The notes beneath the pieces were generated by a model. The model saw only the letters and a program-made list of their open reading frames with translations. It did not search any database and had not been told where the DNA came from. DNA of 45,847 nucleotides from a virus. The stretch is from UHGV virus genome UHGV-0097969; one strand, 5' to 3'. Each line of letters starts with the position of its first letter. Position 1 is the first letter of the stretch. Below are positions 26,029 to 41,880 of this stretch, one piece after another. Made by a program: the position numbers and the translations under genes.

Positions 26029-26104
26029 TGGTGGCCCCTACCGGATTTGAACCGATGACCGTGCGATTATGAGTCGCCTGCTCTAACCACTGAGCTAAGG
26101 GGCC
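26029..26104 (-). tRNA. tRNA with CAU anticodon (Ile2 or Met), CCA encoded
   Basis: Reverse complement GGCCCCTTAGCTCAGTGGTTAGAGCAGGCGACTCATAATCGCACGGTCATCGGTTCAAATCCGGTAGGGGCCACCA folds as a cloverleaf (7-bp acceptor, GCTC/GAGC D stem, TTCAAAT T loop); first half resembles ileX-type as recalled. Confidence 0.85.
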
Positions 26105-30592: not shown

Positions 30593-31660
30593 TCAGGCTT
30601 TCAATAGCGATTCTTTCAGATATCGGGCATCAGCCAGGGCGTTTGGAGTAATCTTGCGAACCCATGCATTACGGGTTGGACTCCACTTAAAGGCGCGTGA
30701 TTTAAGCAGCGAACGAATGTTTGCCTCTGGTTTGCCAGGGAAATAAAACAGGATGCGGTTATCCTCTGGATCTATCTCCATAGAAAAGCCGTCGTATTCT
30801 TCGCGCTGTGCTCCTGTTACAGACTTGACCGATTCAAGCTCCTTAATACGGCTCTGTAGTCGTTTGATTTCGGCGTTATTGTTGCTCAGTGCGTATGAAG
30901 GGAATCCGATGCGCCCACAGAAATCTCCGGCCAGTAACTCTTTGGCTTCGCTTTCTGTAAACCTGAGATCGATTAATGCAGAAAGCTGCTGTATTTGGTC
31001 TTTTTTGTATTTGCGAATGGCCTTATTTGCGGCCTTCATTTTGACGTGTGACTTCATGCAGCCTTGCAGCTTACGAAGCAACTTAAATAGCGCATCAGGA
31101 TCATCAGACGAAATTCCATTACGACCAACACCTGCGGCTTTGCTCTCGTAGTGTGATGCTTTACTTTCGCATTCAACAAACGCTTTTCTGAATAACGCAT
31201 CAGCTTTAGACAAACGGCGGCGATGGCCTTTCGCGCTATAATGGTCAACTAAAATCGGCTGGCCTAACGGGATCACATCCAACAGGTCATGCGCTCGCTT
31301 ATGCGCTACCGCACCTTCTTTTCTGGCTTTTTCTGCACGAGCAATATATCGGGCAAGACGCGCGTTCTGGCGTTCCTGATAGGTGTTTACGTAATCATCT
31401 CCGCGCTGCTGCTGTTCAAGCCATGCTTTGCGCAGATCTTCTGTTACGTCCACCAGCTCCGCAGGGATACAACCTGTTTGGGCTTCATAAGAGTAACCAT
31501 CCTCATAGATGCGCCCATCGTCTTCAACAAAGAAAAAGGTTTCGTGCTCATCGCTTTTGACCATACGACCATTAACATGGCGTAATAGGTAGCCAGTATC
31601 AGTGCTCAACAGGCTGTTAGGGTTGTTGATCCAGTCAGAAATAATTACTTGTTTATTCAT
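30593..31660 (-). CDS. DUF3560-like protein, first gene after repeat cassette b
   Basis: ATG at 31660 (MNKQVIISDW...); motif ...IPLGQPILVDHYSAKGHRRR... resembles DUF3560; the track N-terminal extension is the translated repeat. Confidence 0.5.
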   Translation of the reverse strand: MNKQVIISDWINNPNSLLSTDTGYLLRHVNGRMVKSDEHETFFFVEDDGRIYEDGYSYEAQTGCIPAELVDVTEDLRKAWLEQQQRGDDYVNTYQERQNARLARYIARAEKARKEGAVAHKRAHDLLDVIPLGQPILVDHYSAKGHRRRLSKADALFRKAFVECESKASHYESKAAGVGRNGISSDDPDALFKLLRKLQGCMKSHVKMKAANKAIRKYKKDQIQQLSALIDLRFTESEAKELLAGDFCGRIGFPSYALSNNNAEIKRLQSRIKELESVKSVTGAQREEYDGFSMEIDPEDNRILFYFPGKPEANIRSLLKSRAFKWSPTRNAWVRKITPNALADARYLKESLLKA

Positions 31661-31666
31661 CAGATT

Positions 31667-31768
31667 TCTCCGGTTTAACCAGGGCGGGTATCGCTCGGTT
31701 TCGGGTATAACCTTAGGAAATTTTTTCCCACCTGTAAAGCACTTTTTATATAAATCTATAATTATATA
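31667..31768 (-). promoter_or_regulatory. conserved promoter/leader cassette, copy b (P_R'-like position after the Q-like gene)
   Basis: Near-identical to copies a and c; lies about 60 bp downstream of the Q-like stop. Confidence 0.5.
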
Positions 31769-31830
31769 TTTATAGATTTTCCGATATTCCCGATGCCTAC
31801 AAATCACCAAAACAGCTCAAAATGACACTT

Positions 31831-36795: not shown

Positions 36796-36819
36796 TAAAA
36801 AAGGCCCCCGAAGGGGCCT
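36796..36819 (-). terminator. intrinsic terminator between convergent units
   Basis: AGGCCCC-cgaa-GGGGCCT stem with T-run on the minus strand. Confidence 0.5.
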
Positions 36820-36824
36820 AATCG

Positions 36825-36947
36825 CTACTTGCTGCTAATGTTTATCGTCACATTCAGAGCGTTATCAGTAATCTTCCAACCCTCCCCATGTGGCGTAAAC
36901 AAAGCTCCAGTAACAACGATAAAAATACACATGTAGTATTTTTTCAT
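36825..36947 (-). CDS. small hydrophobic peptide (40 aa), putative
   Basis: MKKYYMCIFIVVTGALFTPHG...; AAGGG SD; terminator directly after the stop. Confidence 0.3.
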   Translation of the reverse strand: MKKYYMCIFIVVTGALFTPHGEGWKITDNALNVTINISSK

Positions 36948-37261
36948 TGTGTGGCCCTTACAGGCCGTTTCACGGCATCCCCACCGACGAAAATGACGCG
37001 AGAGCAAGCACGCTGTTTGTGCCTGCGTGGTACGGCAAGTGGATAATCCTTTCCTGAAAGTCAGTGCCCGGGTGCGAATCGGCGGAAAGGCCCCAAGCCA
37101 TATTACACGTCATACCCTTCATAATGAAGGAATAAAAAACGCTTTTATTACATAAGATTACACGTAAATAAGTTAAAAACCTTCATTTTGCATGAGCTAA
37201 TGAGCTAAATTTTTTTATATGAATAGTGGACTATTCACCTCAGTTGGGTAAGAATGTAGTT

Positions 37262-38094: not shown

Positions 38095-38203
38095 TTGACA
38101 TGAATGCGCCATTGGTGGACACTTTCCGAGCCGTAGCAAAATCTACGGTCGGGATTGGAACCCCGTAGACACAATGGCGCATACCGCGTTAGCGGTTTTT
38201 TTA
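38095..38203 (+). promoter_or_regulatory. promoter plus structured leader with intrinsic terminator (attenuator or small RNA) ahead of the antirepressor operon
   Basis: TTGACA at 38095-38100; hairpin CCGTAG-caaaat-CTACGG; long-range GCGCCATTG...CAATGGCGC; terminator ACCGC-gtta-GCGGT plus T7 at 38183-38202. Confidence 0.35.
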
Positions 38204-38368
38204 TGCGTAAAGCACTGCTACACCCAAATTATGGTGGGGCGTGCGGGGGAGTCGTAAGACTCGCCGGTTCGTCATTGTGTCCGGTAGTTCCAACCCAGCA
38301 CGTCTCACCACCCAATGATTGGAACCTGACGGTGGTGAGTATCCTTAACCTTTAAGGGAATCATCACA

Positions 38369-38560
38369 ATGACAAACCTACCCCATGACTATTACGTCAA
38401 CCTCGTAAAGATCCTTCTCAAGAAAGCCTCATACGCCGATAAATTCCGCTTGGCTGAAATAATCGAGCGCGAAGCTATGCGCATCGCCAGCAACGATAAC
38501 GCTGTTTCTGACGCAAAAATCTCCCTCGTAACCAAAGTAGTTATGGGAGGTGCAAAATGA
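38369..38560 (+). CDS. small protein upstream of and coupled to the antirepressor
   Basis: 63 aa, AAGGGA SD; stop overlaps next start (ATGA). Confidence 0.4.
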   Translation: MTNLPHDYYVNLVKILLKKASYADKFRLAEIIEREAMRIASNDNAVSDAKISLVTKVVMGGAK

Positions 38561-39738
38561 AAACGCTTCCGACCGTTAACACCCTACAGCCTATCCTGCA
38601 TAACCAAATCCCCGTTATCACTACTGAACTACTGGCAAAGCTATACGGCACAGACGTTGATAACATCAAAAAAAATTACTCACGTAACGCAAACCGCTTT
38701 ATTGAAGGAAAGCATTTTTTCAAAGTGGCTGGCGATGAGTTAAAAACTTTGCGAGTGACTTTAAGTCACTCACAAAATTTGCGACTGGTTTTAAACGAGT
38801 CACAAAATGAGGTGCAAATTTCCCCCAAAACTCGCTCTCTCATCCTCTGGACAGAACGCGGGGCTGCACGTCACGCCAAAATGCTTGAAACTAACCAAGC
38901 GTGGGATGTGTTCGAACGGCTGGAAGACTGCTACTTCAACCAGAACGCGCAAACGGCCGCGACCGTTACCGTCTCGCCAAACAATGCTCGTGAGGTTGTC
39001 GATACGCTCAACGCCAAACCGATGTTTTACATTAAAGTGTGCAACAACGAGCCACTCACAACCTCAGCCGATGTTGCCCAGGCATTCAGCACCACAAACA
39101 ATTCCATCGTTATGGCCATCGATGCGCTACGCATTCCTCGCACGGCTGCGGCGCGTCACTTCTTTAAAGAGCAACGACCGCTGGAAGGAAGCGACCGCGA
39201 AATAACAATCTATCGCATGACAAAAGACGGATTTACCTTACTCATGGAGAGCATCGACGGTCCAAGCGTGAAAGATATCAAGCTGGCCTACATTGAAGCC
39301 TTTAACGCTATCAGCAGCGTGTTAAAAACACAGTACGAGCGTGATCTGGCTAAACGACTGTACCAGGAAAAAACGATTATCCGCGCGGCAACAGAGCATA
39401 ATCGGCTATTAACGGAACCGAACTACAGGAAGGAACTAATCAAGGAGTTTGACAAGGCAACAGGAAAAACCAAAGCGGCGCTAAATCTGCCAGCAATGAC
39501 TCAGGAAAATGTGATATCAGCCTTACTTCTTGATCTGCTCAGAAACGCCAGAGCACTGATCAGCTTTGACGAAAACCTGAATCCTCAGCTCAAGCTACTA
39601 CCACCGACAGGCAAAGTAGTCGACCAGGCAGATCACAACAGCATACTCAGCGTACTGGATGCAAACCTACCAGCCAGGACACTACAGGAACTGATAAAGA
39701 TATCGGCGGATAAACTGGCCGCAGGTGCAAAACCATAA
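38557..39738 (+). CDS. Rha-family phage regulatory protein / antirepressor (ORF6N-like N-terminus plus Rha domain)
   Basis: ...ILWTERGAARHAKMLETNQAWDVFERLEDCYF... and ...ITIYRMTKDGFTLLMESIDGPSVKDIKLAYIEAFNAI... resemble ORF6N and Rha signatures. Confidence 0.55.
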   Translation: MKTLPTVNTLQPILHNQIPVITTELLAKLYGTDVDNIKKNYSRNANRFIEGKHFFKVAGDELKTLRVTLSHSQNLRLVLNESQNEVQISPKTRSLILWTERGAARHAKMLETNQAWDVFERLEDCYFNQNAQTAATVTVSPNNAREVVDTLNAKPMFYIKVCNNEPLTTSADVAQAFSTTNNSIVMAIDALRIPRTAAARHFFKEQRPLEGSDREITIYRMTKDGFTLLMESIDGPSVKDIKLAYIEAFNAISSVLKTQYERDLAKRLYQEKTIIRAATEHNRLLTEPNYRKELIKEFDKATGKTKAALNLPAMTQENVISALLLDLLRNARALISFDENLNPQLKLLPPTGKVVDQADHNSILSVLDANLPARTLQELIKISADKLAAGAKP

Positions 39739-39772
39739 AACAAAGCGCCCGATTTGGGCGCTTCTTCAATTC

Positions 39773-40408
39773 TTAATATTTCAGTGTAATCAGTAGCGAC
39801 ACGTGCCCTGATTTGTCACGAGAAACGTAATACTCGCCTCTCTTAGTCTTAAACTCAGCTTTCTGCGTATCAGATTTAACAATCTGCTCTAACTGCGCGA
39901 TCACTGTGTCTCTATCACTTGATGCATCCAAGACTTCAACAGCTACGGCCATAGAAAGCAAGGAATCAGAGCTAGGCTTAGATACTCGCCATAATAACTC
40001 TGAAATCTTCCCATCCTTATCAACTCTAGCTCGACCGTTAACAGATGAATTGATGGCAAATTCAACGGTGTTGTTACCTTGTTTAACTGACTTAATTCTT
40101 ATAGTGGAGGTGGATTTTCCTGATGTAGCGATACCTTCAAGGTCATCATTATATAGCTGCTTAAACTTATCTACGGTCACGCCATCGAAAGCAGCTCCGG
40201 TAGTAGCCGTAGTGCCGGAGTCTTCTGGAATCAAGGCCACAGCAGCAAGAGTATTAACAACAACAAAAGTAGCAATCCCAAGAAACCCACTCACTAAAAC
40301 AGCTTTGAACTTACTACCAGAAGATGGGCCACATTGTTTCCGATATGCACCACGAACTACGAAGAAACACAAAATCAGGCTAATAATAAACGCCACCAGC
40401 ATCCCCAT
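39773..40408 (-). CDS. membrane-anchored protein of unknown function
   Basis: 211 aa, two N-terminal hydrophobic helices, Ser/Thr-rich soluble domain. Confidence 0.5.
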   Translation of the reverse strand: MGMLVAFIISLILCFFVVRGAYRKQCGPSSGSKFKAVLVSGFLGIATFVVVNTLAAVALIPEDSGTTATTGAAFDGVTVDKFKQLYNDDLEGIATSGKSTSTIRIKSVKQGNNTVEFAINSSVNGRARVDKDGKISELLWRVSKPSSDSLLSMAVAVEVLDASSDRDTVIAQLEQIVKSDTQKAEFKTKRGEYYVSRDKSGHVSLLITLKY

Positions 40409-40971
40409 AGAAATCTCCTTTTAGATATAAGGGTAAAGCAATATCGTATTGGATCTTCCTTTAGACACAACCCCCCCTCCCCCCATACAGGGTGCCCTTT
40501 ACCGGAGTTCCGGCCCCTTCTCAAAAGCATCAAAAAAAGCTCGAGATCGAGTACCGGAACTCATGCCACCAGATAGCTCCACATCGTTTCCAATGCTTCG
40601 CCGCCGTGTGCGCCCTGTGGCCCACAATCATGCCATTGGTCGTCTGATATACCTTCTTCTGCTCATTGAGCACAGGCGAGTTGTCGCACTCCTGCCTTTC
40701 TCAGACTCGACTTAGTTTAGATCGCTGTTCCTGGCTTGCGTCAGCACACTTTCCCCTTGTACGCATACCCGCGCGCCACTTCGCCCAAAAACACCGAACC
40801 CAACGAAGTGGCAAAGACAACGACGCGAGCGTGAGTCTGAAACAGGCACCAGTAAAAAAGGGGTTGCAGGCGCAAAAAGATTTGATTATCTTTAGACGCA
40901 AGAAAGCCGCCCCAATCAAGAGGTGTCTTTTTAAATCCAGCCTACCAAGCAAGATTTAAATTTCAGACTGA

Positions 40972-40995
40972 AAACCGCCCGGCAAGGCGGTTTTT
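40972..40995. terminator. bidirectional intrinsic terminator
   Basis: AAAA-CCGCC-cggcaa-GGCGG-TTTTT; ends the HTH/unit-c transcript. Confidence 0.5.
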
Positions 40996-41043
40996 GTCTT
41001 TCTGGCGCTTACATTACACCACCATAAAACGATCCGTAAAGGA

Positions 41044-41316
41044 TCATTTGATCCCTTGTTCCAATTCTGACGACACTTTAACCTTTTCCCATACAAGGGT
41101 TTGCAGCCTTAACAGAATCGCATCTTTATCAAGGTGTGAAAGATCCTTAACCATATCGTCAAACGACAGAACGCGAATGGCCATCTCAATGACCCTCGGC
41201 GGCTCCCCCTTCTCATATCGCTTATATGTAGCCAACGATATCCCAAATTCTTCGGCGGCTCGCTCCTGCGTCCAGTTCATCCCTCGACGCCATAATTTCA
41301 ATTCATAACCCGTCAT
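41044..41316 (-). CDS. HTH (XRE/Cro-type) DNA-binding protein
   Basis: ATG at 41316 with GAGGAGG SD; HTH ...MNWTQERAAEEFGISLATYKRYEKG... Confidence 0.6.
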   Translation of the reverse strand: MTGYELKLWRRGMNWTQERAAEEFGISLATYKRYEKGEPPRVIEMAIRVLSFDDMVKDLSHLDKDAILLRLQTLVWEKVKVSSELEQGIK

Positions 41317-41379: not shown

Positions 41380-41760
41380 TTACTTAACGAGGAATAAAAA
41401 TGGTTTATTGTTCGGCGGTGTAATCGGGGCTGGCTCGCTTTTGCTTATGCGATCAGTGTACCAGGCCAGCTCCTTGTCAAAGTAAGCCTGATTAAAATAG
41501 GCCATGAATGTAGTTTCAAATCCATAACGACCGCTAATACGCAGCATCTGATTGCCGTTCTCTGTTTCCAGATATACCTGGGCACGTTCCTGATTCTCCT
41601 TCAGCCAGGTTAAAGCCTCATCGCATGAGGACACACGATACTCATCATCGTAGCAGTCATCGATGCGGCTTGAGGAAGAACGGCAAATCACGCCAACAGA
41701 ACCAGCCAGGATAGTTTGAATTTTAAGGAAAGCGTTTTTGCGGATTTTAATCATGCTCAT
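41380..41760 (-). CDS. hypothetical protein, first gene after repeat cassette c
   Basis: ATG at 41760 preceded by the conserved leader. Confidence 0.45.
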   Translation of the reverse strand: MSMIKIRKNAFLKIQTILAGSVGVICRSSSSRIDDCYDDEYRVSSCDEALTWLKENQERAQVYLETENGNQMLRISGRYGFETTFMAYFNQAYFDKELAWYTDRISKSEPAPITPPNNKPFLFLVK

Positions 41761-41876
41761 CGGGTTATCTCCGGTTTAACCAGAGCGGGTATCGCTCGGT
41801 TTCGGGTATAACCTTAGGAAATTTTTTCCCACCTGTAAAGCACTTTTTATATAAATCTATAATTATATAATTCTAT
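41761..41876 (-). promoter_or_regulatory. conserved promoter/leader cassette, copy c
   Basis: Near-identical to copies a and b (one G/A difference in the leader). Confidence 0.5.
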
Positions 41877-41880
41877 AAGC

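Follow-up and report, generated by a model that had tools for sequence, protein, structure and literature searches.

A conserved non-coding island in an enterobacterial phage-plasmid, probably a highly diverged ColE1-type replication origin

The viral genome UHGV-0097969, of which the whole 45,847-nt stretch was analysed (hereafter the window), represents a ~48-kb myovirus phage-plasmid. Between a helix-turn-helix (HTH) gene and a membrane-protein gene it carries a GC-rich island that is without any annotated feature in ~130 records, and that is probably a highly diverged, phage-plasmid variant of the ColE1-type (theta-RNA) replication origin. The original prediction placed this island at 40420-40970, between a terminator and the membrane-protein gene, and offered a structured non-coding RNA, a long regulatory leader or a remnant of captured DNA as its nature. 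The island is real and lies where expected, between the hairpin/terminator at 40969-40996 and the membrane-protein gene at 39773-40408, but its extent needs revision: the conserved block starts sharply at 40458 and reaches ~41065, past the terminator and inside the 3' end of the HTH gene. The left edge is sharp whatever adjoins it, and three different left neighbours were seen.

The compositional features first described for the island are largely borne out. GC content is 0.53-0.54 in 300-nt windows over 40450-40900, against 0.41-0.47 in the flanks, with a strongly negative GC skew on the plus strand (-0.26 to -0.30), and the poly-C tract reads C7TC6 at 40471-40484. The 9-bp inverted repeat is exact (GAGTTCCGG, 40505-40513, and CCGGAACTC, 40554-40562). 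A single repeat of this length in ~680 nt is close to chance level (~0.9 expected by our estimate), and we take it as real because of the comparative data, in which it forms the base of a hairpin that is fully paired in 24 sequences. The palindrome said to lie within it (CTCGAGATCGAG, 40541-40552) is present, but it is imperfect and not conserved, the Salmonella types having TTTGAGATCGGG instead.

Among the E. coli-, Salmonella- and Klebsiella-type relatives the island is 88-91% identical, whereas the flanking genes are 49-79% identical. Compared with the Salmonella type, the figures are 87.6% for the island and 49-79% for the cargo gene, the HTH gene, a gene for a 126-aa protein and higBA; the adjacent 126-aa protein itself has 64-65% amino-acid identity. 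No open reading frame (ORF) of more than 50 aa is intact in all relatives, each being interrupted somewhere by 1-nt indels or stop codons, in agreement with the early doubts about these frames. A 50-aa ORF (40563-40715, plus strand) is open in all variants, with a ratio of nonsynonymous to synonymous polymorphism (pN/pS) of 0.5-0.9, no bias in codon position and no Shine-Dalgarno sequence, and no ORF of the island matches Pfam or NCBIfam. The island is thus non-coding and under constraint. RefSeq annotates 37-53-aa "replication initiation proteins" within the RNA II region of four ColE1-family plasmids (L060, at 784-942, L061, L063 and L065), on the strand opposite RNA II; these look like ORFs held open by conservation at the RNA level, as does the 50-aa ORF of the island.

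Further relatives were gathered through homologues of the 126-aa protein and by pattern scans; these supplied the Klebsiella-like type together with three types from metagenomes and two variants with natural deletions. The sequence diversity amounts to roughly six lineages of 83-91% identity. Four scans of viral contigs with exact patterns returned only the same close family and chance matches (L010, L017 and L057-L059), a scan of genome contigs returned chance matches in unrelated metagenome-assembled genomes, and three useful variants (L040, L046 and L051) came from a scan of metagenomes. As an anchor for distant relatives the HTH protein proved promiscuous, its relatives lying in unrelated contexts, and the 126-aa protein pointed to a phage-plasmid of Vibrio, in which the adjacent gap is non-homologous.

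To the left of the island lies a slot (39742-40457, found also in L001, L004, L015, L022, L024 and L046) whose cargo differs between relatives: a 211-aa membrane protein here, and ORFs of 62, 218 or 264 aa, or nothing, elsewhere. The slot is bounded by the sharp left edge of the island and by the terminator of an anti-repressor gene. Its cargo is always co-oriented with the strand of the primer RNA proposed below, and where the slot is empty a terminator hairpin abuts the island.

The features recognised in the island are as follows, HMM standing for hidden Markov model.

41031-41053, minus strand: GATC-N4-GATC-N7-GATC cluster (Dam sites) around the -35 element of the predicted primer-RNA promoter, overlapping the stop codon of the HTH gene
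41011-41040, minus strand: predicted RNA II-like promoter, with -35 TTTACG (41040-41035), an 18-nt spacer, -10 TAATGT (41016-41011) and a start at ~41003
40969-40996, roles on both strands: hairpin AAAACCGCC-CGGCAA-GGCGGTTTT, from the terminator scan
40898-41004, plus strand: predicted RNA I-like antisense RNA of ~105 nt, with three consecutive stem-loops, ending at a strong terminator
40864-40892, plus strand: predicted antisense-RNA promoter, TTGCAG-17-TATCTT, read from the sequence
40458-41003, minus strand: predicted RNA II-like pre-primer RNA of ~515-545 nt, G-rich and multi-domain, from conservation and consensus structure
40930-40960, unstranded: second stem-loop with a lineage-specific apex (helix 5, CG:17 versus UA:7)
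40775-40812, minus strand: variable hairpin with a conserved 20-nt loop, UUGGGUUCGGUGUUUUUGGG (helix 10)
40724-40770, minus strand: 47-nt block containing GUACAAGGGGAAAGUGUGCUGACGCAAGCCAGG, invariant in 13 distinct sequences
40581-40596, minus strand: 6-bp hairpin with an invariant GAAA tetraloop, 5'-GCAUUG-GAAA-CGAUGU (helix 20)
40505-40562, minus strand: long interrupted hairpin of 20 pairs (40562-40540 with 40525-40505), with the 9-bp stem as its base (helix 22)
40507-40538, minus strand: origin-proximal motif UUUUUUUGAUGCUUUUGAGAAGGGGCCGGAAC, the second collinear HMM match
40471-40484, minus strand: G6AG7 run, 13 nt before conservation ends, its length almost invariant across lineages

Similarity of the island ends to ColE1-family origins

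A profile HMM was built from nine diverse ColE1-family origins; in ColE1 itself (NC_001371) RNA I was located with Rfam. Against the whole window this model gives one match above noise, on the minus strand from 41065 to 40971 (E=5.2e-6, 17.4 bits), which covers the RNA II promoter, the GATC sites flanking it and the first ~35 nt of RNA II with the 5' hairpin. All 33 copies of the island score 14.9-18.7 bits at this place and nothing else exceeds 8 bits in 534 kb; the hairpin at 40969-40996 alone scores 7.7 bits. In the reciprocal direction, an HMM of the island matches the 5' ends of the ColE1 family with E~1e-5.

Within the match the model aligns 41011-41040 with the RNA II promoter (TTGAGA-17-TAATCT). 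The hexamers of the RNA II-like promoter are invariant and the variable positions (41022-41025) fall in the spacer. There is one GATC-N4-GATC-N7-GATC arrangement in the window (0.00 expected from shuffles), and most island-bearing loci have it; GATC-N7-GATC surrounds the -35 element in 7/9 ColE1-family sequences. On the plus strand the hairpin that follows reads as a terminator, continuing into TTTTTGTCTTT, and makes up the third stem-loop of the predicted antisense RNA, while in the minus-strand reading it forms the 5' stem-loop of the predicted primer RNA, followed by only 3-4 U; as a terminator it is stronger on the plus strand. The Salmonella-type version of this hairpin, CCGCCTTGCAGGGCGG, is identical to that of the ColRNAI plasmids L067 and L068.

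At the other end of the island, UUUUUUUGAUGCUUUUGAGaaGGGGCCGGAAC (40538-40507) aligns with the origin-proximal attttgtgatgcttgtcagGGGGGCGGAGC of ColE1 (E=0.076 in a search limited to the island), and the two matches are separated by 527 nt, compared with 535 in the model. For each of the nine family members the best local match falls on this stretch. A segment test likewise finds the first ~140 nt and the last ~100 nt of the island, and not the middle, collinear with all nine, and hmmalign aligned only the 5' part to the family. The point equivalent to the RNA-DNA switch of ColE1 is predicted at ~40487, the switch sequence itself not being conserved. The G6AG7 run beyond it may act in hybrid formation or in ending the transcript.

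As an unbiased check, the 5' 131 nt were compared by blastn with 72,556 plasmids. After the phage-plasmids came ~1,700 further records; among the matches listed, small plasmids (2-13 kb) of Klebsiella, Escherichia, Salmonella, Aeromonas and Edwardsiella predominated. The best of the listed matches after the phage-plasmids, CP077297.1, is hit at its RNA II promoter, where it shares the GATC-N4-GATC-N7-GATC arrangement; its membership of the ColE1 family was verified (56.5 bits with Rfam RNAI, E=2e-139 with the family HMM). No close small-plasmid relative of the island was found among the 72,556 plasmids.

Signs of other kinds of element were sought as well. A repeat search and inspection showed no iterons, DnaA boxes, IHF sites or oriT in the island, and a sequence of the invariant block that recalls a XerCD cer-like site (TGCGTACAA) was dismissed on inspection, its XerD arm being mismatched. 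No tRNA or tmRNA was found in the island, none of the other Rfam 15 families (riboswitch, leader, ROOL, GOLLD and HEARO among them) reached its gathering score there, and a permissive scan gave matches at chance level.

Conserved RNA structure and the predicted antisense RNA

For the minus strand, RNAalifold applied to 24 distinct sequences gives a consensus of 152 pairs at -166 kcal/mol, with 99.5% of cells paired. Ten pairs have changed on both sides and ~21 more show one-sided changes that preserve pairing. None of 500 shuffles matched the observed number of covarying pairs, and in a control with the partners slid pairing falls to ~40-48%. The same procedure on the plus strand yields 123 pairs, 3 of them covarying, at -116 kcal/mol. 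Compensatory changes are seen in three hairpins, and many pairs alternate between G·U and G-C or A-U; in a helix-by-helix scan the hairpins 40581-40586/40591-40596 and 40775-40783/40804-40812 stood out, each with several compensatory pairs. We favour the minus strand because apparent A·C and C·A mismatches on the plus strand become G·U pairs on the minus strand, and because the consensus fold is better. The proposal of a structured non-coding RNA therefore gains a consensus fold with covariation, but on the strand opposite to that originally read. Most helices are backed only by invariance or wobble changes, as follows from the limited sequence diversity.

In the variable hairpin, helix 10, 5 pairs have changed on both sides and 99% of cells are paired; nearly all of its mismatches in the plus-strand reading are G·U in the minus-strand reading. 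In the metagenomic variant L046, 40765-40814 is missing, so that the whole hairpin has gone as a unit. In helix 20 both sides have changed at 3 pairs, and its wobble pairs hold on the minus strand only. Helix 22 keeps 100% pairing in the 24 sequences; 5 of its pairs have changed on one side only, all of them still paired on the minus strand. The invariant block at 40724-40770 lies opposite the G-run region GAACGGGGGGTTCGTGCACACAGCCCAGC of ColE1 in pairwise alignment, a placement that the segment test does not confirm. An end-to-end helix suggested by RNAalifold (5' AGACA with 3' UGUCU) was discarded, being broken by its variants, and no complementary target for the conserved 20-nt loop or for the C-run was found in the window. 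The otherwise near-invariant sequence contains one hypervariable triplet, at 40843-40845 (CAG, TGG, CGT, ACG, GCG or -TG), which lies at the base of a predicted long-range helix and varies even among the 99%-identical E. coli copies.

On the plus strand, the promoter predicted for the antisense RNA is a weak match to the consensus, with its hexamers in invariant blocks and the variable positions 40873 and 40880 in the spacer; its start would lie ~104 nt from the predicted start of RNA II, compared with ~100 nt in the family (PMC8683028). The predicted antisense RNA folds at -30.9 kcal/mol (z=-3.43), a stability reached in 0/200 shuffles. Its three-hairpin fold recurs in four variants that have diverged, and ColE1 RNA I, folded for comparison, shows the same architecture. 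The apex of the middle stem-loop (40930-40960) is the most variable part, and pairing is kept with different sequences: GC/GC in the E. coli type and GGU/ACC or GGUU/AACC in the others, the loop sequences also differing. A variable apex that preserves pairing is expected of a specificity determinant in ColE1-type incompatibility, and we regard this apex as a candidate for that role. Taken together, the folds predict an antisense RNA of the RNA I kind, with three stem-loops and complementary to the 5' end of an RNA II. The predicted pre-primer, counted from ~41003, would measure 515-545 nt, depending on whether it stops at ~40487 or at 40458. The predicted lengths of the two island RNAs, ~545 and ~105 nt, match the ~550 nt for RNA II and ~100 nt for RNA I given for the family (PMC8683028).

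Proposed mechanism and alternative readings

Considered as a ColE1-type origin, the island would work as follows. A sigma-70 promoter at 41040-41011, flanked by GATC sites, would drive a G-rich pre-primer RNA of ~520-545 nt leftwards on the minus strand. The 3' end of this RNA would hybridise to its template at the U-run/G-run motif (40538-40507) and perhaps at the G6AG7 run (40484-40471). RNase H would cut the persistent hybrid near 40538-40487, and the cut RNA would prime DNA polymerase I (Pol I) for leading-strand synthesis leftward from the island. The antisense RNA of ~105 nt (plus strand, ~40898-41004) would pair with the nascent 5' end of the pre-primer and block its primer-competent fold, thereby setting the priming frequency and with it copy number and specificity. 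We infer both transcripts and their ends, hybrid formation and priming from the sequence comparisons above.

A leftward leading strand would run in the same direction as repA and as most of the genes that are listed for the E. coli ATCC 25922 plasmid. The GC skew of that plasmid (L006, a 48.5-kb circle) has the same sign in nearly every 1-kb bin and shows no switch at an origin or terminus; since it is uniformly one-sided over the whole plasmid, skew does not locate the origin, and it fits the proposed direction of synthesis and does not prove it.

Several observations weigh against this reading. Rfam RNAI (RF00106) gives weak full-length matches of 18.1 bits on the plus strand (40924-40997) and 16.3 bits on the minus strand, below its threshold of 47, and 17.1 and 15.4 bits on the two strands of the Salmonella type, whereas genuine family members score 73.8 and 56.5 bits. 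The central ~300 nt have no consistent similarity to the ColE1 family, and nhmmer with the single ColE1 sequence found nothing in the window. Pairwise alignment speaks for the ColE1 reading, since the island (minus strand) and the ColE1 RNA II region align from end to end at 56% identity; tested with dinucleotide shuffles, the local alignment has z=7.9 and the global one z=5.9, while the plus-strand control has z~1. Much of this signal is regional composition, however: when the shuffles preserve local composition in blocks, z falls to 2.4-4.8, with 3.6-4.8 for the alignment that had z=7.9. A generic sigma-70 scan called neither of the predicted promoters, both being weak; the TTGAGA-17-TAATCT of ColE1 would also fall below the rule of that scan. 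In the metagenomic variant L051, 22 nt (40688-40709) that form one strand of a predicted invariant helix are missing, and two changes in L054 break a helix of the minus-strand reading. Finally, the element already has an IncFII-type repA, and cargo genes that follow the island without a terminator would also fit a leader. Because the Rfam RNAI threshold is missed and the middle third is unalignable, we describe the island as probably working like ColE1 and partly homologous to it, and not as a plain member of the family.

The island-bearing plasmids receive no replicon type from MOB-suite and are typed as non-mobilizable, and besides RepA no initiator, helicase or polymerase is recognisable in the phage. 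The sole hint of another phage-encoded replication protein is a 405-aa DUF3560 protein in the early region (30593-31810, minus strand), which matches a primase-annotated PHROG (E=4e-37). A 32-kb deletion derivative retains both repA and the island, and since it keeps both replicons it cannot tell which of them is in use. Beside the IncFII-type repA, the island origin could serve either plasmid maintenance or lytic replication. One version, possible though doubtful, is that the island is the lytic origin of the phage, quiet in the plasmid-prophage state and firing after induction, with the G6AG7 run acting like conserved sequence block II (CSB II) to end the transcript and lock an R-loop. The repA would then maintain one or two copies in the prophage state, and the phage would amplify its genome with host RNA polymerase, RNase H and Pol I.

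CSB II of human mitochondria (G5-6AG7-8) is reportedly an R-loop- and primer-forming element. The GGGGGGAGGGGGGGUUGUGUCU of the island recalls its form, with two G-tracts split by one A, then a U/G-rich stretch, at what is presumably the 3' end of the primer transcript. No homology is implied, and a hybrid G-quadruplex at the island would be pure speculation.

An alternative to a ColE1-type origin is that the island is a structured RNA or long 5' leader, derived from or resembling a ColE1 origin and no longer priming. It would drive the variable cargo gene next to it, as a constitutive promoter with a leader, or would act in trans as a regulatory RNA. This accords with the conserved structure and with an element that already has repA. 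Cargo genes of different kinds (211 aa in the window; 62, 218 or 264 aa in relatives) always follow the left edge directly, in the same orientation and with no terminator between, and for this reason the leader of the original prediction stays as a weaker rival. We nevertheless judge it unlikely: L004, L015 and L046 have no cargo, with a terminator directly after the island, and yet keep the island equally conserved. Moreover, the parts that match ColE1 are the promoter, the 5' hairpin, the antisense architecture and the origin-proximal motif, which a mere leader would have no reason to retain.

The captured-DNA proposal, in the form of an inactive and drifting remnant of a small ColE1-like plasmid acquired by cointegration, would account for a resemblance to ColE1 that is confined to the two ends, for the low Rfam RNAI scores and for the missing MOB-suite replicon type. 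A dead remnant is quite improbable, however, because the island is the best conserved stretch of the region, next to genes that have diverged to 49-79%, and because its substitutions are compensatory or wobble-compatible. The length of the G6AG7 run is also kept in almost all variants, and the search of 72,556 plasmids gave no close small-plasmid relative.

A plus-strand non-coding RNA across the island, ending at the 40969-40996 terminator, is very improbable: the plus-strand fold (z=-3.97), the stronger terminator on that strand and the two L054 changes, which are wobble-compatible only there, speak for it, but its consensus is the weaker one in total pairs, covarying pairs and energy, many A·C and C·A cells of the covarying hairpins are mismatches on that strand, and the ColE1 HMM match lies on the minus strand. 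A short plus-strand RNA over the right-hand ~105 nt belongs to the favoured ColE1-type model. A protein-coding gene or pseudogene, to which the open 50-aa frame might point, is scarcely credible given the broken longer frames, the lack of Pfam and NCBIfam matches and, for the short frame, a pN/pS of 0.5-0.9, differences spread evenly over codon positions and no Shine-Dalgarno sequence.

Related elements, known systems and implications

The island and its flanks are found at 99% identity in ~60 non-mobilizable E. coli plasmids of 47-49 kb, that of ATCC 25922 (NZ_CP009073.1) among them, and in the Yersinia phages vB_YpM_39/41/44, and at 88% identity in three Salmonella plasmids. Annotated relatives encode tail, head and lysis genes, a CI-like repressor, ParA, a HigBA toxin-antitoxin and the IncFII-type repA. 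To the left of the cargo slot, isrK and C4 antisense RNAs (38130-38202 and 38227-38315, plus strand) lie directly before a 63-aa ORF and an ORF6N/Rha anti-repressor gene region (38369-39738, plus strand); together they form a P1-type immI immunity module, here in a phage-plasmid other than P1. Elsewhere in the window are a ryfA-like RNA (36797-37095, minus strand, 134.6 bits) and a tRNA gene (26032-26104, minus strand, 67 bits), annotated as tRNA-Ile in the ATCC 25922 plasmid. On the other side of the island, an AT-rich 31-nt sequence at 41847-41877 (tttatataaatctataattatataattctat; also 41752-41850) shows 90-97% conservation when the E. coli and Salmonella types are compared, and recurs beside parA in the relatives; it may serve the par and 126-aa/HTH operons alike as an operator or centromere-like repeat. 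In a more distant relative (L025, 5453-6878), RepA and HigBA occur in the same order, and an IS110-family element follows right after the homologue of the 126-aa gene, at the expected place of the HTH gene and island.

The literature searched contains no description of the island and no report of a ColE1-type origin in this or another enterobacterial phage-plasmid. With the ColE1/pMB1/ColRNAI group the island shares an RNA II promoter with GATC sites around -35 and a -10 of the form TAATNT; an A-run, GC-hairpin and U-run right after the start that double as the antisense terminator; a predicted antisense RNA of ~100 nt with three stem-loops; a predicted G-rich structured RNA of ~550 nt; and a U-run-GAUGCU...G-run-CGGA motif ~530 nt downstream. 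It differs from that group in its unalignable central ~300 nt and sub-threshold Rfam RNAI score, in the extra G6AG7 run after the predicted switch point, and in its host, a 48-kb tailed-phage genome rather than a small plasmid, where it coexists with an IncFII-type repA. The annotated records of island-bearing plasmids contain no rop, and the plasmids, typed non-mobilizable, have no mob genes. Primosome assembly sites lie downstream of the ColE1 origin; at the island they cannot be conserved, since the downstream DNA is the variable cargo slot.

Cluster A mycobacteriophages provide demonstrated cases of RNA-based prophage origins (Wetzel et al. 2020, PMC7157519). Their prophages are likewise extrachromosomal and depend for replication on a non-coding RNA beside a partition/maintenance region (PMC7157519). 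In contrast to the element described here, these are phages of Actinobacteria that lack repA, and they have no sequence relationship with the island. The link between the island and ColE1, on the other hand, rests on sequence similarity and not only on analogy.

Replicons of the ColE1 type are regarded as a hallmark of small multicopy plasmids. If the island is a variant of this origin, the ColE1 superfamily would extend to a tailed-phage genome, in a phage-plasmid family that is widespread in E. coli, Salmonella and Klebsiella and to which the Yersinia phages vB_YpM_39/41/44 and the plasmid carried by reference strain ATCC 25922 belong. Replicon-typing tools would miss such origins, as the lack of a MOB-suite assignment for these plasmids indicates. 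The island would give the phage-plasmid a second replicon that needs no initiator protein, predicting incompatibility and copy-number behaviour, and could explain how the element switches from a low-copy plasmid to lytic amplification.

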